Virus record (IMG/VR): IMGVR_UViG_3300020029_000569
Location: 28,207 to 92,206 of that record
DNA length: 64,000 bases
Reading direction: 5' to 3' (one strand)
Source of the DNA: a virus
Lineage: Duplodnaviria > Caudoviricetes
Position numbers and translations under genes: made by a program. The notes below the pieces were generated by a model, which worked only from the letters and a program-made list of their open reading frames with translations, was not told where the DNA came from and made no database searches. Shown piece by piece: positions 45,694 through 53,275 of this stretch (within the stretch, counting starts at the first letter, position 1; every line of letters starts with the position of its first letter).

Positions 45694-45882
45694 ATGAACA
45701 AACAAATTAAAGATATTTTAGAAAAGCACGTTGACCTTAAATTTATAGGCAATGGTACATTCGCAGAAAACCTAAATAACGCCATCATTGATATATGCAG
45801 CAGGCAAATTGAAGTTACCGCAAAACAACTATCAAAGTACTTAAAGAAAGTAGAATTAACTTATAAAAACATCTCAAAATGA
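45694..45882 (+). CDS. Hypothetical protein
   Basis: 62 aa; overlaps the next start. Confidence 0.5.
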   Translation: MNKQIKDILEKHVDLKFIGNGTFAENLNNAIIDICSRQIEVTAKQLSKYLKKVELTYKNISK

Positions 45883-46358
45883 ACAAACAAACAAATGAGG
45901 GGCTGCGGAAGCCACTCGATAAAATAATAGCACACATGAAAAGTTGTGCAGAATATGCCGAAAAAGAAGGAGAAAACATGGATGATGTATCATGGGACAT
46001 GGAGGAGGGTATTTTAATATCATACAATGATGCTAAACTTATACTAAGCGAACTACTCAGCACTCAAAAAATGGGAGTGGAAGGGGATGGGTGGGCAGAT
46101 GATTTAAATTCGGAAGAACTGCACCCTGATAGTGTAAGGCTATTAGAAATAACATTTGAAGAACTGCGATTAAAAATGATCAAAAGCCAGAAAAAATACG
46201 GATATACAAACGGATGGCTGACCTCAAATTGGGAAGATGAATGCAGAGAACAATTAATACAGCATTTATACAAAGGCGATCCGCTTGATGTAGCTATATA
46301 CGCATTGTTTATGATTTATAGAGGTTGGTCAACTAACCCCACCAACCCGAACCGATAA
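45879..46358 (+). CDS. Phage protein with KGDPxDVA motif (MazG-like fold possible)
   Basis: C-terminal KKYGY..W..HLYKGDPLDVAIYALF. Confidence 0.5.
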   Translation: MNKQTNEGLRKPLDKIIAHMKSCAEYAEKEGENMDDVSWDMEEGILISYNDAKLILSELLSTQKMGVEGDGWADDLNSEELHPDSVRLLEITFEELRLKMIKSQKKYGYTNGWLTSNWEDECREQLIQHLYKGDPLDVAIYALFMIYRGWSTNPTNPNR

Positions 46359-46384: not shown

Positions 46385-47191
46385 TAACGGTCTGACGCTA
46401 TACGAAGGCAGGGAATAAGATGCACTCCCTTTCAGCCTTGCACAAATGATAAATAGACTTGTTTATTTGAAAAATTATATTTATCTTTGTGGTATGAAAA
46501 ATTGTTACGTTTACATACACAAAAAAGCAGACACGAAAGAAGTGTTTTACGTTGGAATAGGAAACCAATTAAAATATAGGAGAGCTTATCAGGTTACTGC
46601 AAATCGTAGAAGCAAAGAATGGGCAAGGGTTGTTGAGAAACACGGAGTTGAGGTTGAAGTATTTGCGGATAATTTAACAAGAGAAGAAGCTTTTGAAATA
46701 GAAATTTCTCTTATTAAAAAATATGGCAGAATAGACTTAGGCAATGGTTGTTTAGTGAATATGACAAAAGGTGGAGATGGTATTTATGAATTATCAGAAG
46801 AAGCTAAAAAACGAAATCCGAGAAATAGGGGGCAGAAAAGAGCAGAACACGCAACAAGAATTACTAAAGAAAAACTAACTGGTAGAGTTTTAAGTGAGGA
46901 AACAAAACACAAGATGAGGTTGTCTAAATTAGGTAAAAAACAATCAAAAGAGCATTTAGAAAAGAGAAAGCAAGGTTTAAAAAACACACATTATAAGGGT
47001 AGGACAATTTTAAATACTGAAACCAATGAAACATTTAACTCTATTTCAGAAGCAGCAAGGTTTTATAATATTGAAATTTCTACACTAAATAGAAAGCTAA
47101 ATGGCAAAACCAAAAACGATACGAATTTAATTATTAAATAAAGAAACGCTCACTTTAGCAGTACGCCCCTGCTTTTGTATAGCGTATGTTA
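46385..47191 (+). repeat. attC-like site 1, interrupted by a GIY-YIG gene
   Basis: TAAC ggtctg ACGCTATACGAAGGCAGGG (46395-46413) ... CCCTGCTTTTGTATAGCGT (47167-47185) at GTTA. Confidence 0.75.
46494..47141 (+). CDS. GIY-YIG homing endonuclease with NUMOD3/NUMOD1-type DNA-binding repeats
   Basis: YVYIH..FYVGIG..R..E..LVNMTKGGDG; LSEETKHKMRLSK; FNSISEAAR; own TATCTTTG box at 46482-46489. Confidence 0.88.
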   Translation: MKNCYVYIHKKADTKEVFYVGIGNQLKYRRAYQVTANRRSKEWARVVEKHGVEVEVFADNLTREEAFEIEISLIKKYGRIDLGNGCLVNMTKGGDGIYELSEEAKKRNPRNRGQKRAEHATRITKEKLTGRVLSEETKHKMRLSKLGKKQSKEHLEKRKQGLKNTHYKGRTILNTETNETFNSISEAARFYNIEISTLNRKLNGKTKNDTNLIIK

Positions 47192-47214
47192 TGGGGCGTT
47201 TTTAATCGAAATTT

Positions 47215-47496
47215 ATGAACACATACGAAATTCAAAAAGACCTTCAAAAGGCACTCGAAAACATTGATAAGAACGATTATATTCTTCGTTCACTAATCGC
47301 TCACTTGGAAGAACAATGTACTGAGGAAGAAGTAAAATTGGTTGAAGATAAAATATTTGAACTTGAACCGAAAGAATATGATAATAGGGAAGATTTCTTA
47401 GAAGACTATCAGCCAATTTTTGATTTGGTTGAATTTCCTTTCAAAGACTGCTTTCGTCTTTTTGACAAACGGCAACTTAATTGGGATGCTCTGTAA
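47215..47496 (+). CDS. Cassette A: acidic hypothetical protein
   Basis: 93 aa between GTTATGGGGCGTTTT and AAAATGCCCTATAAC. Confidence 0.7.
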   Translation: MNTYEIQKDLQKALENIDKNDYILRSLIAHLEEQCTEEEVKLVEDKIFELEPKEYDNREDFLEDYQPIFDLVEFPFKDCFRLFDKRQLNWDAL

Positions 47497-47505
47497 AATG
47501 CCCTA

Positions 47506-47598
47506 TAACGTTTTGCGGCTTTGTGTCTGTTTGCCCCTTGCACAAAGTTTCAAGTTACCACAAATGCTGATGGGGCAAATAGCACAAAACCGCTGTTA
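47506..47598 (+). repeat. attC-like site 2 (93 bp)
   Basis: TAAC gtttt GCGGCTTTGTGTCTGTTTGCCCC ... GGGGCAAATAGCACAAAACCGC t GTTA. Confidence 0.8.
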
Positions 47599-47626
47599 GG
47601 CGTATGTATTTAAAAACTTTGACGAA

Positions 47627-48286
47627 ATGATAAAGCACCCTGCAACGTACACAAATAGTTTCATTCCAAAATTTGCTGAACTGCTTATTGGATGTGAAAA
47701 CGTACTTGACATTTTCGGAGGCATTGGAAAACTTGCCCTGATAAAAGAACACGGATTTACTGGCAAAGTAATCTGTAATGAATTAGAACGAGAATGGGCG
47801 GAAACATCACCGTATAATGTTGATGAATGGCATATTGGAGATGCTGCGAATATGCAGTGGGCTGAAAGTAACTCTTTTGATGCAATATGCACAAGCCCGA
47901 CCTATGGCAATAGAATGGCTGACCACCATAACGCAAAAGATGGAAGCAAAAGAGTTACTTACAAACATTTTTTAGGGCGGGATTTGAACGAAGCTAATAC
48001 TGGTAGAATGCAATGGGGTGATAAATACCGAGAAAAGCACTTGGAGATTTACAAAGAATGTGCAAGGGTTCTAAAAAATGGTGGGCTTATGATTGTGAAT
48101 GTTTCCGACCATATCCGAAAAGGGCAAGTTGTGAATGTGGTAGAATGGCATAAGGAAGCACTAACAAATTTTGGAATGAAACTTATAGACGAAATAAAAA
48201 TTGAAACACCGAGAATGGGATTTGGGCAGAACGCTAAAAGCAGGGTGCAACACGAATGTATCTTGGTCTTTCGGCATGGCGTATAA
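47627..48286 (+). CDS. Cassette B: SAM-dependent DNA methyltransferase (N4C/N6A-type)
   Basis: LDIFGGIG SAM motif then TSPTY catalytic-like motif; stop codon is the TAA of TAAC. Confidence 0.8.
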   Translation: MIKHPATYTNSFIPKFAELLIGCENVLDIFGGIGKLALIKEHGFTGKVICNELEREWAETSPYNVDEWHIGDAANMQWAESNSFDAICTSPTYGNRMADHHNAKDGSKRVTYKHFLGRDLNEANTGRMQWGDKYREKHLEIYKECARVLKNGGLMIVNVSDHIRKGQVVNVVEWHKEALTNFGMKLIDEIKIETPRMGFGQNAKSRVQHECILVFRHGV

Positions 48287-48409
48287 CGTTTTGCGTGTAT
48301 AAGAAGTGGCGGATTAGAAATCCAAAACTTTCAGCAAACGCAGAACTTTGATAGAATGACAAAACTTTAAATTAACCAAAAAAACCGCCATTTTTTATAC
48401 ACGCTGTTA
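48284..48409 (+). repeat. attC-like site 3 (126 bp)
   Basis: TAAC gttttg CGTGTATAAGAAGTGGCGG ... CCGCCATTTTTTATACACG ct GTTA. Confidence 0.85.
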
Positions 48410-48512
48410 TAAGCTGGTGCGGTTTATTAACGCAGAATTTGAATCAAAGAACGAAACCTTTTTCTTTTCTTTTTTGAGCGATGGCAAAAATAAATTTGAA
48501 AAATTTAAAAAT

Positions 48513-49355
48513 ATGATTGATATAAACAAAAATTACAATGAAAGCAATTTAGAAACAATGGCAAAGATGCCTGATTGTTTTGTAGATTTAACGGTAACAT
48601 CACCACCGTATGATAATTTAAGAACCTATGAGAACGATGACTACTTAACTTGTGGTGAGTTTGAAGATATGGTTAAGGAGCTTTGGCGAATTACAAAAGA
48701 TGGTGGTGTAGTTGTTTGGATTGTAGGTGATTCAGTTAAAAACGGAAACGAAAGTGGGACAAGTTTTTATCATGCTTTGACTTTTAAGAAGTATGGTTGG
48801 AACTTATTTGATACTATGATTTACTTTAAAAATGGCGGTCTAAATTCAGGTGCGAATAACTCATACATTCAAAAGTTTGAGTATATGTTTGTTTTTTCAA
48901 AGGGTAAAATAAAAACAACAAACATTATTGAGGATAGACCAAACGAACACACAAAGCCACGAAAAAAGAAAAAACGAAACCCTGATGGCACATTTAGAAT
49001 ACAGGAAGTGCTAACGAAAGAACAAGGCAAGAGATATAATATTTGGTGTGTAAATACAGGAATACCGCACTCAACCCAAGACAAAATCGCTTATGAGCAT
49101 CCTGCAATATTCCCAGAAGTACTTGCTAATGACCACATAATAAGTTGGAGTAATGAAGGTGATTTGGTTTACGACCCTTTTATGGGAAGTGGAACAACTG
49201 CTAAAATGAGTATTCTAAATAATAGAAATTGGATTGGAAGCGAAATATCTTCTGAATATTGTGAGATTATTGAAGAACGTATTAAAAAAGCGTGGGAAGA
49301 AAAAAGAAAAGAAAAAGATTTACAAGCAGGAACTCTATTCGGAGACGAAATGTAG
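48513..49355 (+). CDS. Cassette C: beta-class N4C/N6A DNA methyltransferase
   Basis: TSPPY, HPAIFP, DPFMGSGTT; likely ATG at 48513. Confidence 0.92.
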   Translation: MIDINKNYNESNLETMAKMPDCFVDLTVTSPPYDNLRTYENDDYLTCGEFEDMVKELWRITKDGGVVVWIVGDSVKNGNESGTSFYHALTFKKYGWNLFDTMIYFKNGGLNSGANNSYIQKFEYMFVFSKGKIKTTNIIEDRPNEHTKPRKKKKRNPDGTFRIQEVLTKEQGKRYNIWCVNTGIPHSTQDKIAYEHPAIFPEVLANDHIISWSNEGDLVYDPFMGSGTTAKMSILNNRNWIGSEISSEYCEIIEERIKKAWEEKRKEKDLQAGTLFGDEM

Positions 49356-49365
49356 CACTTGCTTA

Positions 49366-49435
49366 TAACGTTAAAACTACACGCTGGTTGCCTATTTATT
49401 CCAATGCTTCGGCAACTAGCTTGTAGTGATTGTTA
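49366..49435 (+). repeat. attC-like site 4 (70 bp)
   Basis: TAAC gttaaa ACTACACGCTGGTTGCC ... GGCAACTAGCTTGTAGT gatt GTTA. Confidence 0.8.
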
Positions 49436-49542
49436 GTAGCTGTTTATCTAATTTACATTTATTTTGAAAATATTTGTAATTTTATTAGGTTATACAAAAA
49501 TTAGTTGTATATTTGTATAACAAAATCAAACAAATACAAATT

Positions 49543-49767
49543 ATGAAAACATCAACTTACACTTACCAATTTACAAACGGAACTTTTACAATCACAAAAG
49601 GAATAAGAACAAAATTTGATTGGTTTGTTGAAGTAGAATTAAATCCAATTGAATGTGATGGATATGTTGAAAAGAGATTTATAAAACTAGACCAAAATTT
49701 ATTTTTAACTTTAAAAAATGCAAAAGAAACCACAATTAAATTACTAACTAAATTTAACTTATTATAA
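49543..49767 (+). CDS. Cassette D gene 1, hypothetical
   Basis: ATG at 49543 after a TATATTTG box at 49508-49515. Confidence 0.6.
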   Translation: MKTSTYTYQFTNGTFTITKGIRTKFDWFVEVELNPIECDGYVEKRFIKLDQNLFLTLKNAKETTIKLLTKFNLL

Positions 49768-50180
49768 TGAAACTAATTCCAATGACTAATTTTGTTTTCC
49801 AGCAAAAAGAAAAATTAACAGATATTTACGGTAATGCAAAAGATGTGTTAGAAATTGACAAATCAAGAATAAATTTTATTCACAGCGTTTCAAATTACGC
49901 AAAGTTCCTAAATGAAACAATTTCACTAGGAATGCTAGTTCCTTGTGATGAAAAAGGAATTGAAATAATTATAGATACTGAGCACCGAGAAGATAGCACA
50001 AGTTGGTCACCTGATGAAATTGAACAATATAAAAAAGCTGAAACCGAAATTTATTTAAAAACAACAATAGATTTAGATACTGCTAAATTTCACGTTAAGC
50101 AAAAAAGAACAATTGAATATTTTACCTCTTTTAATATTGAAATATCCGAGTATGCTATTAAAAAATTTCAATTAGAATAG
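49767..50180 (+). CDS. Cassette D gene 2, hypothetical phage protein
   Basis: 137 aa; MKLIPMTNFV..NYAKFL..LGMLVPCDE. Confidence 0.65.
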   Translation: MKLIPMTNFVFQQKEKLTDIYGNAKDVLEIDKSRINFIHSVSNYAKFLNETISLGMLVPCDEKGIEIIIDTEHREDSTSWSPDEIEQYKKAETEIYLKTTIDLDTAKFHVKQKRTIEYFTSFNIEISEYAIKKFQLE

Positions 50181-50182
50181 TT

Positions 50183-50350
50183 ATGCAAAGACAATCAATA
50201 ATAGTATTTATTCAAGGCGATAGAATAGAAACGTATGGAAACTTAAAAAAGTGCTGTGAATGTGAGAACTTGAAATATCACACTTTAGCACGTTTAAAAT
50301 TTCCAATTCGGCTAAATGATGTAGTTATACACAAAACGCTCTTTAAATAG
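50183..50350 (+). CDS. Cassette D gene 3, 55-aa putative DNA-binding protein
   Basis: Hand translation MQRQSIIVFIQGDRIETYGNLKKCCECENLKYHTLARLK... Confidence 0.55.
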   Translation: MQRQSIIVFIQGDRIETYGNLKKCCECENLKYHTLARLKFPIRLNDVVIHKTLFK

Positions 50351-50354
50351 CTAC

Positions 50355-50481
50355 TAACGTATCGGTGCTATACGATGTGGCGGATTTTTAGTACTAAAGT
50401 CCAATACGAAGCACCAAAGTTGAATTTAAAATAAATGTTTAATCGAATCACGTCAGCCGCCATATTGTATAGCACTTGTTA
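50355..50481 (+). repeat. attC-like site 5 (127 bp)
   Basis: TAAC gtatcg GTGCTATACGATGTGGCGG ... CCGCCATATTGTATAGCAC tt GTTA. Confidence 0.85.
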
Positions 50482-50512
50482 GCGGATGCCGTTTCTTCAC
50501 AATAATTTCAAA

Positions 50513-50749
50513 ATGGAATACAAAGCACAAGAATTAAAAAAAGATTTAATTACAAAGCGTTGCATTGATAACGATATGACAATGGATGAAGCTTGTAAAG
50601 AAATAGGAATTTCAAAAGCTACATTATCAAGGTTGGAAAAGTCAAAACTGCCCGATGTCGAAACTCTTGGTAAGGTATGCACTTGGTTAGGGACAGAGCC
50701 AAATAAATACTTTGTCATTGTTCGCAAGCGTCAAGACGGTTTCCGCTAA
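50513..50749 (+). CDS. Cassette E: XRE-family HTH regulator
   Basis: MTMDEACKEIGISKATLSRLEKSKLPDVETLGKVCTWL; stop in TAAC. Confidence 0.85.
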   Translation: MEYKAQELKKDLITKRCIDNDMTMDEACKEIGISKATLSRLEKSKLPDVETLGKVCTWLGTEPNKYFVIVRKRQDGFR

Positions 50750-50871
50750 CGGTCGAGTATTGCCGAAGGTGGGGCATTATACCACTAATGTTTAATTGAA
50801 ATACAAAACTTGATAATATGAAAAATGTTGATTTGAAAAACGAAACCCCCACTTGCGGCAATACTTTGTTA
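50747..50871 (+). repeat. attC-like site 6 (125 bp)
   Basis: TAAC ggtcg AGTATTGCCGAAGGTGGGG ... CCCCACTTGCGGCAATACT tt GTTA. Confidence 0.85.
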
Positions 50872-51207
50872 TGCCCCGTTTTGGGTCAAACTTACAACTA
50901 CTTTGATGACGGGAAGATTAGACCAAGTAGAAGAATGGAAGTTGTTATTACAGAAATTATCCCATTTAATGAAATTGATGCAGAAACTTTGGAATCTTGG
51001 AAAGAAGAAGTTGAAGAATGTAATTGGCTTTACGCTAAAGAAACTGATTTCTTTGTAAAGGGTGATTTAAAAGTTTCTGATGATAAGATTGAAAAGATAA
51101 TTTTTGTAAGAACTATCAATAATAATGATGGTTGGTTTAGTCTTGGATGGTGGGGAGGTAGATTAGATATTGACGGTTCGTTGAACGCTCTGTTAAATGG
51201 GGCATAA
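50818..51207 (+). CDS. Cassette F: hypothetical protein (start codon inside site 6)
   Basis: 129 aa; stop in TAAC. Confidence 0.7.
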   Translation: MKNVDLKNETPTCGNTLLCPVLGQTYNYFDDGKIRPSRRMEVVITEIIPFNEIDAETLESWKEEVEECNWLYAKETDFFVKGDLKVSDDKIEKIIFVRTINNNDGWFSLGWWGGRLDIDGSLNALLNGA

Positions 51208-51330
51208 CGTAAAAGCATTGCTGTCAGTGGCGGAAATTGAAGCACAAAAGTTAAATTATGCAGAAAAGTTTATTTGAAAATATACAGTTGAATGAAGTAC
51301 ATCAGCCGCCATTGCAGCAATGCAGTGTTA
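51205..51330 (+). repeat. attC-like site 7 (126 bp)
   Basis: TAAC gtaaaa GCATTGCTGTCAGTGGCGG ... CCGCCATTGCAGCAATGC agt GTTA. Confidence 0.85.
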
Positions 51331-52271
51331 GCCGCAGTACTTTGTTATTAGGTGATTGCTTAATTGAAAGCGATAAAATTGAAAGCGGAACAGTTGATTT
51401 GATATTGACTGATTTACCTTATGGAAATATGGGAATGGAAGGTACAAATCACGGAATGACAGGGAAAGTTAGCTGGGATGAAACTATAAACCCAAGTGAT
51501 TTATTTGTGGTTGCGGATAGAATTTTGCGAAAAAACGGCAAAATGATTTTGTTTAGCCAAGAACCATATACAAACGAATTGATAAGTAAGGCAATACCTA
51601 ATTTACCATATAACTATAAGGCTTTTTGGGAGAAAGACCATTTTGCCAACGCTTTAAATGCTAAAAAAGCAATGTTAAATTATGCAGAAGAAATACTTAT
51701 ATACAGCAAAAACAACCCAAAACACGACTTTGAAGGATTACACCCATTGAGAGTATACTTTTTAACTCAAAAAGAAGAAAGTAAATTAACCGATAGCGAT
51801 ATAAAAAAAATACTTGGTAACGGAATGGGTGGGCATTACTTTACTAATGGCAGTCAGTTTTGTTTACCTACTTTGGCTAATTATGAAAAACTACAAACTA
51901 CTGGATTTTTTAAGCGTGATTGGAATGAATTAAAGCAAATAGATACGGAATACCGAACCGAACTATTAAAGCAAATGAATGACAAATACCCAAGCACCTT
52001 TAACCTATGGGAAGGCAACAAATACAAAAGCAACATCCTGAAATACAAAAAGGATTACAACGGCTACCACCCCACACAAAAACCTGTTTTATTGCTCGAA
52101 GATTTAATCAAGACTTTCAGTAATGAAAATGATTTAGTAGTTGATTTGACAATGGGAAGCGGCTCAACTGGTGTAGCCTGTCGAAATACAAACAGAAGAT
52201 TTATCGGCATAGAGAAAGATGAAAAGTATTTTGAGATTGCAGTACGGAGGGTGTCTGCGTATTGCGGCTAA
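51258..52271 (+). CDS. Cassette G: beta-class N6A DNA methyltransferase (start inside site 7)
   Basis: TDLPY, HPTQKP, DLTMGSGSTG; stop in TAAC. Confidence 0.92.
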   Translation: MQKSLFENIQLNEVHQPPLQQCSVSRSTLLLGDCLIESDKIESGTVDLILTDLPYGNMGMEGTNHGMTGKVSWDETINPSDLFVVADRILRKNGKMILFSQEPYTNELISKAIPNLPYNYKAFWEKDHFANALNAKKAMLNYAEEILIYSKNNPKHDFEGLHPLRVYFLTQKEESKLTDSDIKKILGNGMGGHYFTNGSQFCLPTLANYEKLQTTGFFKRDWNELKQIDTEYRTELLKQMNDKYPSTFNLWEGNKYKSNILKYKKDYNGYHPTQKPVLLLEDLIKTFSNENDLVVDLTMGSGSTGVACRNTNRRFIGIEKDEKYFEIAVRRVSAYCG

Positions 52272-52388
52272 CGGTTTCGGGCTTGGCGAAGTGGCTGAAC
52301 CCGAAGCTAAACTGGAACACAGAACTTTAAAATTAAGAACGAATGATTGATAGAATTACCGAACAGCCATTTCGCCAAACCCGTGTTA
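52269..52388 (+). repeat. attC-like site 8 (120 bp)
   Basis: TAAC ggttt CGGGCTTGGCGAAGTGGCTG ... CAGCCATTTCGCCAAACCCG t GTTA. Confidence 0.85.
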
Positions 52389-53149
52389 TGTGCAGGGCGG
52401 TTGATAACCTTGAACTCCTTTTGTCGCAACCTGATGAAAGTGTAGATTTGATTTACTGCGACATTCTTTATGGAACTGGTAGAAATTTCGGTGATTACCA
52501 AGACTTAAAACCGATTAGAAGCGAAATTGAAGCACATTATTTGCCACGATTAAAAGAAATGCACCGAGTATTAAAACAAAACGGCTCAATTTATTTGCAA
52601 ATGGATTATAGAATATCCCATTGGATTAGGTTGATAATGGATGATATTTTTGGGTATGATAATTTTGTAAATGAAATTATATGGTGCTACACTATGCCAA
52701 ACAACAACAAAAGGAGATTTAATGCAAAACACGATAATATATTTTCTTACGCAAAAACTAAAGACTATACATTTAATTGGCAAAGCGTATTAACAGATTA
52801 TTCCGAAAGTAGTAAAGAAAGAGGTAAGTATGGAAGTAACTCAATGATGGGTAAAGCCGACAGCCCTTTATCTAAAAACGGAGGTAAAATTATGGAAGAT
52901 TGGATGGTAATACACACACTTAAAGGCAATTCAAAAGAGTATTCAAAATACCCAACCCAAAAGCCAAAAGCATTAATTGAACGAATTATAAAAGCAAGTT
53001 CAAACGAAGGAGATACGGTTGCAGATTACTATTTAGGTTCAGGAACGACAGCAGTAGTTTGTAAAGAATTAAACCGAAATTTTATAGGTTGTGACATTAA
53101 CCCAAAGGCTATTGAAATAACGAAAGCTCGATTGAATGGTGGTCAGTAG
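52343..53149 (+). CDS. Cassette H: beta-class DNA methyltransferase with variant catalytic motif
   Basis: LIYCDILY (in place of DPPY), YPTQKP, DYYLGSGTT. Confidence 0.85.
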   Translation: MIDRITEQPFRQTRVMCRAVDNLELLLSQPDESVDLIYCDILYGTGRNFGDYQDLKPIRSEIEAHYLPRLKEMHRVLKQNGSIYLQMDYRISHWIRLIMDDIFGYDNFVNEIIWCYTMPNNNKRRFNAKHDNIFSYAKTKDYTFNWQSVLTDYSESSKERGKYGSNSMMGKADSPLSKNGGKIMEDWMVIHTLKGNSKEYSKYPTQKPKALIERIIKASSNEGDTVADYYLGSGTTAVVCKELNRNFIGCDINPKAIEITKARLNGGQ

Positions 53150-53275
53150 CATTGCACATAACTACTCGCTTGCTCTGTAAAACTACCTATATAAGTACTA
53201 TATGGAGTTATAGGCGCACCAATGGTTTGTTAATGACTATCACAATTATTCCGTAAATCCGCAAAAATTTAAACA

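Follow-up and report, generated by a model that had tools for sequence, protein, structure and literature searches.

A probable integron-like array of hairpin-led gene units in a phage of Bacteroidota

Integrons are the textbook gene-capture device of Proteobacteria. Two other described arrangements are of interest here. The pdif modules are small gene modules bounded by recombinase sites, and the related dif sites are double-stranded sequences of about 28 bp with two enzyme-binding arms. The promoter-stem-loop (PeSL) repeats in the hyperplastic regions of T4-type phages are stem-loops lying between small accessory genes and are thought to aid modular shuffling via homologous recombination. 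In the current analysis we have examined a row of small genes separated by hairpins at positions 46385-53162 of a 64,000-nucleotide stretch of phage DNA (referred to here as the window), which is the right-hand 64 kb of the 92-kb IMG/VR virus record IMGVR_UViG_3300020029_000569. The record is 79% complete. On the evidence presented below this row is probably integron-like, an array of eight mobile units carried by a phage of Bacteroidota. Recombination would act on the folded sense strand at a conserved TAAC through an Xer/IntI-like enzyme supplied in trans; we prefer this explanation to all others considered, with a fair measure of reserve.

Published surveys have found little of this kind in the relevant organisms. 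Bacteroidetes were represented by In0 elements and one complete integron only (PMC9024848). A screen of 10,705 phage genomes yielded 17 clusters of attC sites lacking integron-integrases (CALINs), including one with two sites in the Polaribacter phage P12002L, and one of the hairpins of this phage was recombined by IntI1 in E. coli between the G and the TT of GTT (Qi et al. 2023, PMC9892861). The P12002L sites were called with classical attC models and were termed divergent, and no unit boundaries, recombinase or wider family were given (PMC9892861). The description of the Muminvirus isolates reports 15 methylase genes whose presence is correlated with plating efficiency, with no mention of hairpins or cassettes (PMC7077304). 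Our search of the literature found no description of the system reported here, the nearest being the two-site CALIN of P12002L.

The array of the window is a one-way row of small genes on the + strand with long imperfect hairpins between the genes. Every hairpin has TAACG at its start and TGTTA at its end. The hairpins are about 70-130 nt long and consist of TAAC, an unpaired spacer of 4-5 nt found on the 5' side only, a long covarying stem that spans about 20 bp, a loop that varies from 20 to 90 nt and the closing TGTTA. Twelve of 24 stem pairs are altered on both sides, and none of 500 shuffles reaches the observed measures of covariation. The invariant TAAC and GTTA, the one-sided spacer, the covarying stem and the variable loop together constitute the architecture of an attC site. 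With eight such attC-like sites within 6.8 kb and no tyrosine recombinase in the 92-kb record, the array has the composition of a CALIN. The cargo comprises four N6/N4 DNA methylases (units B, C, G and H), which are orphan DNA methylases, a Cro/C1-type helix-turn-helix (HTH) protein (E) and small proteins without an assigned family (A, D1-D3 and F).

A covariance model built from five hairpins of the window recovered a sixth site of the window that had been excluded from the build, as well as 15 sites within the initial 10 kb of the cultured Flavobacterium phage vB_FspS_filifjonk9-1. The array content is all that filifjonk9-1 and the window phage have in common. For the wider counts, sites were detected by the pattern TAACG...TGTTA together with a duplex of the arms. 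Scoring of ungapped stems, and of duplexes forced to contain TAAC/GTTA, was dropped since known sites were missed. This detector gave 414 sites in viral and phage loci among the matches listed, always on one strand per locus. A strict 24-base hairpin pattern has at least 120 matches in IMG/VR and at least 120 in bacterial genomes, and the bacterial matches listed are nearly all from Bacteroidota, with some from Ignavibacteriota and Chlorobi-type bins. Site-bearing short contigs were also seen in five bins assigned to Bacillota, Nitrosotalea, Proteobacteria, Clostridium and Citrobacter; these are probably mis-binned DNA of phages or Bacteroidota. In four wastewater or activated-sludge runs the summed contig depth over the hairpins (window positions 47219-47852 and 51974-52607) exceeds the depth of the phage flanks 50- to 300-fold; the hairpin family is therefore highly abundant in these habitats and carried by many organisms.

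The two ends of a unit are complementary to each other. For each GTT the 15 bases beginning with it were compared with the 15 ending in each AAC, and scores were taken over the 11 positions that lie beyond GTTA/TAAC. The self scores of the eight units (Table 1) sum to 65, a value reached by the true pairing alone among all 40,320 permutations of 5' and 3' ends (mean 32.5, s.d. 6.1). Pairing across the hairpin, scored at seven sites, does not rise above random, with a sum of 24 as against 56 for the self pairs of the units concerned. A previous sequence-only reading of this DNA had proposed that each unit is complementary at its 5' end to its own 3' end, and not within the same hairpin. Seven of the eight units bear this out, and its placing of the GTT(A) and (T)AAC boxes is confirmed. 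The relation extends to other genomes. The unit ends at the 15 sites of filifjonk9-1 pair as in the window, and 292 units from 122 IMG/VR and phage loci, among the matches listed, have a mean self score of 7.9/11 compared with 3.7 for non-self and 3.7 for same-site pairs.

Part of this outer stem is a consensus of the family, about GCAGTACT / AGTATTGC, and the unit-specific part is mainly at positions 5-10. Position 11 is never a Watson-Crick pair; of 197 good pairs, 185 have a conserved G of the 5' end opposite a T of the 3' end there, and 53 have a T opposite a T at position 10. This gives 9-10 bp of outer stem, then a G.T and a further 4 bp, which refines the stem of about 14-15 bp proposed earlier by a conserved wobble or mismatch. 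The full stem, made up of the unit's own 3' end, TAAC, the hairpin, GTTA and the unit's own 5' end, is contiguous only in a circularised unit, which fits discrete mobile cassettes. At the ends of unit B (47595-47609 and 48273-48287) a hexamer, GGCGTA, is shared at equal distance from GTTA and TAAC in direct and not inverted orientation, and the GCGTATGT bases seen at these ends recur right before the GTTA of site 1.

The boundaries of the units were examined by comparing each unit with its flanks against all other loci and recording where homology breaks. Left ends of homology coincide with the TAAC of the upstream hairpin in 31 pairs, as against 8 for its GTTA. For right ends the counts are 20 at the downstream TAAC and 0 at the GTTA of the downstream hairpin. 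The alignments show identity ceasing within TAAC(G) on both sides. Judged by these junctions, the mobile unit is an upstream hairpin with its gene, and the crossover would lie in TAAC on the sense strand. The sequence-only reading had drawn cassettes from GTT to AAC with crossover at GTT(A); its boundaries are off by one hairpin. Its proposal of real excision and integration fares better, in view of the discrete mobile units and their precise gain and loss between near-identical phages. The chemistry that it inferred may hold as well, as a TAAC crossover on the opposite strand is equivalent by analogy to the classical cut between G and TT. Read on the opposite strand, the unit becomes a classical cassette (G, cut, TT...gene...AAC, hairpin, G) with the gene reversed, and hence the arrangement may be called a mirror-image integron.

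Comparison of closely related phages reveals whole units gained or lost. The cultured Flavobacterium phages mumin6-1 and mumin6-3, which are 99.9% identical over the array region, differ by one indel of about 500-506 bp consisting of one hairpin, one gene and the 3' box of that gene. The indel is flanked by a direct TAACGTT repeat; the flanking identity is merely these 7 bases, and the adjoining hairpin arms differ. Between filifjonk9-1 and an uncultivated viral genome that is 99-100% identical to it there is a multi-unit indel of 5.4 kb with its junction at TAAC, and one additional unit at a different position of the array. The homology of unit 4 of the window to filifjonk9-1 begins at GTT (49430) and stops at AAC (50360), and that of unit 7 to gp017 of filifjonk9-1 runs from the hairpin loop (51225) through GTT into the gene and stops at AAC (52273). 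Evidence from public runs was taken from contigs of four runs; array stretches without coverage were left out of account, as were contigs that end at TAAC. In a Logan contig of run X9, unit 1 extends to its TAAC and is followed by about 1.07 kb of other DNA and then by TAAC 50355 through unit 5, which once more places the edges of units at TAAC. An "empty site" version of the window phage was not found, and the protein of the left flank (45879-46358) has no relatives in the viral collection as judged by peptide patterns.

The layout of the arrays agrees with these junctions. Arrays open with a hairpin that lacks a preceding unit end and close with a bare TAAC, 76 arrays ending in such a hairpin-less TAAC. 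The T at position -11 is present at 284 of 286 internal sites, and the upstream partner at just 17 of 72 first sites. The array of the window likewise runs from TAAC 46385 to TAAC 53159-53162 as eight complete units of hairpin and gene. The GTT reading leaves orphan half-sites at the two ends of the array; with units read from TAAC to TAAC there are none.

The hairpins have a marked strand bias. The non-Watson-Crick oppositions in the stem are all G.T on the sense strand, amounting to 740 G.T pairs in 197 hairpins reconstituted with their own unit ends. The sense strand is the more stable one in 192 of these 197, with a mean folding energy of -26.3 kcal/mol as compared with -21.6 kcal/mol for the antisense strand (Wilcoxon p = 1.6e-33), and the window's own seven sites show the same bias. 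The loop was also considered as the promoter of the unit, but the Bacteroidota motif TAnnTTTG lends this no support, as it is present on the sense strand in just 5 of 413 viral-locus sites. The same motif, known as the Bacteroidota -7 promoter motif, is seen on the antisense strand in 57 of the 413, and may serve at some sites as an outward or antisense promoter.

A candidate enzyme accompanies arrays in Bacteroidota genomes and some large phages. Clustering of 3,046 open reading frames (ORFs) from 242 loci showed that, methylases aside, a tyrosine recombinase is the only non-cargo family to recur in bacterial loci. Of the 120 bacterial loci listed, 16 carry it, always downstream of the sites, with the gene starting about 100-400 nt past the terminal TAAC (50-400 nt overall). 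A DDE transposase was found in 5 bacterial loci. A search that started from the recombinase placed 31 of 31 sites on the predicted side in 13 of 20 loci. Among the best 30 recombinase loci of IMG/VR, 9 have arrays of up to 10 sites directly upstream; all 35 sites are upstream, with gaps of 50-93 nt. The array-linked recombinase is the sole tyrosine recombinase of two large phage records. One of them, an IMG/VR contig, closes its array next to the recombinase with a unit whose end boxes are those of unit H of the window. A linked recombinase at E<=1e-42 is carried by 134 of 401 sampled genomes of Bacteroidota. Around the closest homologues of the Planobacterium recombinase, seven of eight loci have no hairpin within 8 kb in the model search and the eighth has one weak match; these loci may have a divergent type of site or another role.

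The array-linked recombinase is about 278 residues long, matches PF00589 and PF13495 and has a SAM-like core-binding domain at its N-terminus. Its best NCBIfam matches are NF040815 (XerA/integron integrase), for which 3 of 10 proteins tested score at or above the 220-bit cut-off, and TIGR02249, which it matches with 161-226 bits, under the cut-off of 265. The TIGR02249 match is split into two stretches in 10 of 10 proteins, and where coordinates are shown the profile positions of about 177-240, the IntI-specific middle, are skipped. The additional domain around patch III that is specific to integron integrases is thus absent from the enzymes of the relatives, and the window phage has no enzyme. 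In comparisons with the PDB the protein matches XerA and IntI4 equally well, and it scores like XerA, XerC and XerD. The aligned proteins all share the catalytic residues R, K, HxxR, H and Y, the signature of a simple tyrosine recombinase of the Xer/IntI-like kind. The clade stands apart from the chromosomal Xer paralogues of the same genomes (about 1e-50 to 1e-63 within the clade versus about 1e-31). A published classification of tyrosine recombinases describes the IntI insert as "not fully conserved" in the integron-like subgroup (PMC8138268).

A motif, T..T.(T)ATA..CGCAA, follows the terminal TAAC in fixed register in 73 unique arrays of phages and bacteria, before the recombinase gene, and resembles an attI. 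In the terminal flank of the window this motif is weak at the TAAC and no recombinase lies beyond it. A better copy of the attI-like core, TTATAGGCGCAC, was noted at 53207-53219, about 45 nt past the terminal TAAC as against directly after it in most arrays; the intervening 45 nt may be a remnant.

These features can be assembled into a proposed mechanism. In an excised circular unit the roughly 15 bases after GTTA and those before the next TAAC would pair and extend the hairpin into one long stem. A tyrosine recombinase would recognise this stem, formed by the sense strand, as its folded single-stranded substrate, and strand exchange would take place within TAAC, between AA and C by analogy with integrons. 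Units would be cut and joined from TAAC to TAAC and inserted at the TAAC adjoining the attI-like flank. The enzyme is most likely the small Xer/IntI-like tyrosine recombinase without the IntI insert that is encoded just past the last TAAC of arrays in Bacteroidota and some large phages. As the window phage has no enzyme, its array would be serviced in trans, by the host or a co-infecting element, or else be static at present. The likely payoff would be rapid reshuffling of anti-restriction methylases.

Several observations weigh against this mechanism. Unit B, which the sequence-only reading had already marked as weaker, is a clear exception among the self-complementary ends, with a score of 2/11. 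No match to PF00589 or TIGR02249 was obtained in the 92-kb, 79% complete record, and the complete genomes of filifjonk9-1, mumin6-1 and P12002L likewise lack a tyrosine recombinase; the Muminvirus isolates differ by whole units despite having no tyrosine recombinase of their own. Seven of the 20 recombinase loci are without sites within 8 kb in the model search. Catalysis by the Xer-like enzyme is presumed from its adjacency to the arrays. The circular forms are deduced from the unit ends; no circle was seen in the public runs, whose contigs are unable to show one. About one fifth of the informative left junctions are at GTTA and not at TAAC; this minority could arise by recombination of the less stable antisense strand or by homologous exchange between similar hairpins. 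Conserved G.T pairs, moreover, would suit an RNA structure equally.

The first rival explanation dispenses with a dedicated recombinase and regards the hairpins as conserved intergenic repeats, such as transcription or RNA-processing signals, with the units shuffled by general homologous or microhomology recombination during phage replication, a route that has been proposed for the PeSL repeats of T4-type phages. The frequent lack of a tyrosine recombinase in array phages is in keeping with this, as are the ERF- or YqaJ-type recombination genes often found upstream of the array, the similarity of the hairpins of different units, which is sufficient for recombination, and the junctions at both TAAC and GTTA. 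The indel between mumin6-1 and mumin6-3 argues to the contrary, since the identity at its borders is limited to 7 bases and the adjoining arms differ. General recombination also gives no role to the unit-specific complementary ends, and would not be expected to yield a terminal motif in fixed register with a recombinase always on one side. We consider this explanation unlikely.

The RNA structure mentioned above leads to another rival, in which the 5' and 3' boxes of a cistron pair in the transcript and control its processing, stability or translation, mobility being secondary. The restriction of all mismatches to G.T on the sense strand is a classic sign of structure in a transcribed strand, the hairpins are directly upstream of genes, and 38% of first long ORFs start in the loop. 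An RNA role leaves unexplained the precise DNA indels at TAAC, the unrelated cargo with shared hairpins, the recombinase and the attI-like flank, and no Rfam family matches the hairpins; its chances appear poor.

A classical integron, with a cassette made of a gene and its downstream hairpin, crossover between G and TT after the hairpin and recombination of the antisense strand, is very improbable here. It would account for the invariant GTT/AAC, for ends that pair as in a classical circular cassette and for the few homology breaks at GTTA, and IntI1 does cut a related hairpin between G and TT (PMC9892861). Against this, no homologous pair keeps the downstream hairpin with the gene (right ends at GTTA 0, at TAAC 20), the indels run from TAAC to TAAC, the arrays are hairpin-first with a bare TAAC last, and it is the sense strand that folds better in nearly all hairpins. 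The polarity of integrons, of gene and then attC with G/TT of R' exchanged on the antisense strand, was accordingly not what we found.

Transposition of another single-strand type, by an HUH (IS200/IS605-like) transposase or by the GIY-YIG endonuclease adjacent to the array, deserves hardly any credence: hairpin-guided cleavage beside a fixed 4-mer does resemble IS608, which inserts 3' of TTAC, and a GIY-YIG-like gene does lie inside site 1, but the clustered ORFs contain no recurrent transposase-like family near the arrays beyond the DDE transposase, and the GIY-YIG gene was rejected as the mobilising enzyme, as it is a polymorphic insert of a single loop and absent from other arrays.

Table 1. 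Features of the hairpin-led array in the window
Feature	Position	Strand	Content	GTT box	C of AAC box	Self score (of 11)
Hairpin site 1	46385..47191	+	TAAC 46385-46388, GTTA 47188-47191; arms ~46395-46413 / ~47167-47185			
Loop ORF of site 1, 231 aa	46446..47141	+	GIY-YIG/NUMOD-like homing endonuclease by reading of the sequence			
Unit 1 cargo	47188..47509	+	ORF A 47215-47496 (93 aa, no confident family); 5' box 47188-47202, 3' box 47495-47509	47188	47509	9
Unit 2	47506..48287	+	Hairpin 47506-47598; ORF B 47627-48286 (N6/N4 DNA methylase); ends unpaired	47595	48287	2
Unit 3	48284..49369	+	Hairpin 48284-48409; ORF C 48417-49355 (N6/N4 DNA methylase, Pfam PF01555 at 6.8e-41)	48406	49369	9
Unit 4	49366..50358	+	Short hairpin 49366-49435; small ORFs 49513-49767, 49767-50180, 50183-50350	49432	50358	10
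Unit 5	50355..50750	+	Hairpin 50355-50481; ORF E 50486-50749 (Cro/C1-type HTH protein)	50478	50750	9
Unit 6	50747..51208	+	Hairpin 50747-50871; ORF F 50818-51207 as listed (no family)	50868	51208	9
Unit 7	51205..52272	+	Hairpin 51205-51330; ORF G 51258-52271 (N6/N4 DNA methylase)	51327	52272	9
Unit 8	52269..53162	+	Hairpin 52269-52388; ORF H 52343-53149 (N6/N4 DNA methylase); closes with terminal TAAC 53159-53162	52385	53162	8
Terminal flank without hairpin	53163..53275	+	Position where other arrays have the attI-like motif and then the recombinase gene			

Site 1 differs from the other sites in having a gene in its loop. Its arms are complementary, two G.T pairs included, and are separated by the GIY-YIG-type gene (Table 1). 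A Pfam search with the 231-residue product gave no match at E<=0.01, so that the family name comes from reading of the sequence. A public-run contig (run X1) joins 46457 to 47148 through 9 other letters, which is site 1 without the gene. The GIY-YIG-like gene is thus a present/absent insertion outside the cassette machinery, and it is probably a homing endonuclease aimed at the hairpin loop.

Units F, G and H each contain a loop ATG (50818, 51258 and 52343) at a conserved position and in frame with the downstream gene, and the GenBank annotation of filifjonk9-1 uses such starts. The first long ORF begins within the hairpin in 111 of 292 units (38%), where about one third is expected from the frame alone; as this is near the chance rate, the loop ATG is not claimed as a genuine start codon.

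Taken more broadly, there is about an even chance that a gene-capture system is widespread among Bacteroidota and shared with their phages. It would be a mirror-image analogue of the integron acting on the sense strand with an Xer-like recombinase that lacks the IntI insert, and lytic phages without the enzyme would borrow it in trans to swap units with anti-restriction methylases. If so, the host range of a phage could change by single-unit events. In cultured Flavobacterium phages the cargo consists of methylases tied to plating efficiency (PMC7077304), and the system would explain how anti-restriction changes one unit at a time. The surveys have turned up hardly any integrons in Bacteroidota and, in phages, nothing beyond fragments, whereas the site family is common. 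It would also constitute a natural experiment on the essentials of an integron, with a recombinase without the "defining" IntI insert, recombination of the opposite strand and hairpins placed before the genes. The cultured pairs of Muminvirus and Flavobacterium sp. LMO6-LMO9 make the system directly testable.

Among the known systems, the PeSL repeats share with the window the presence of repeated stem-loops between accessory phage genes, and differ in being without unit-specific complementary ends, a fixed 4-base junction and a linked recombinase. With Xer and the dif/pdif sites there is in common an Xer-like enzyme linked to the array and small modules bounded by recombinase sites; the sites of the window, however, are folded hairpins of 70-130 nt, and the array-linked enzymes form a clade of their own beside the chromosomal Xer paralogues.

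The CALIN of P12002L is closer. It is found in a lytic flavobacterial phage, with methylase genes between TAACG...TGTTA hairpins and, as seen by eye, self-complementary unit ends. Its hairpins are a short-loop variant as compared with those of the window, and a search of P12002L with model R1 gave no match.

With integrons and CALINs (Cury et al. 2016, PMC4889954; IntegronFinder 2, PMC9024848) the array shares tandem one-way small units, structure-specific imperfect hairpins with invariant AAC/GTT, an unpaired spacer and a variable loop, and unit ends that complete the site only in the circular form; in relatives a conserved, putative primary site and a tyrosine recombinase lie at one end of the array. 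Enzyme-less arrays, as in CALINs, are common in this family. The architecture is integron-like in operation, but two defining features of the integron family are missing, namely the IntI insert and the polarity of gene and then attC with antisense recombination. In the arrays described here the hairpin precedes the gene, the crossover is placed at the TAAC of the sense strand, which is the strand that folds better, and the outer stem measures about 15 bp, position 11 being a fixed G.T, as against the 7-bp R box of a classical attC. The recombinase, without the IntI-specific insert, is encoded past the array on its 3' side, and the arrays are hosted by Bacteroidota and their phages.

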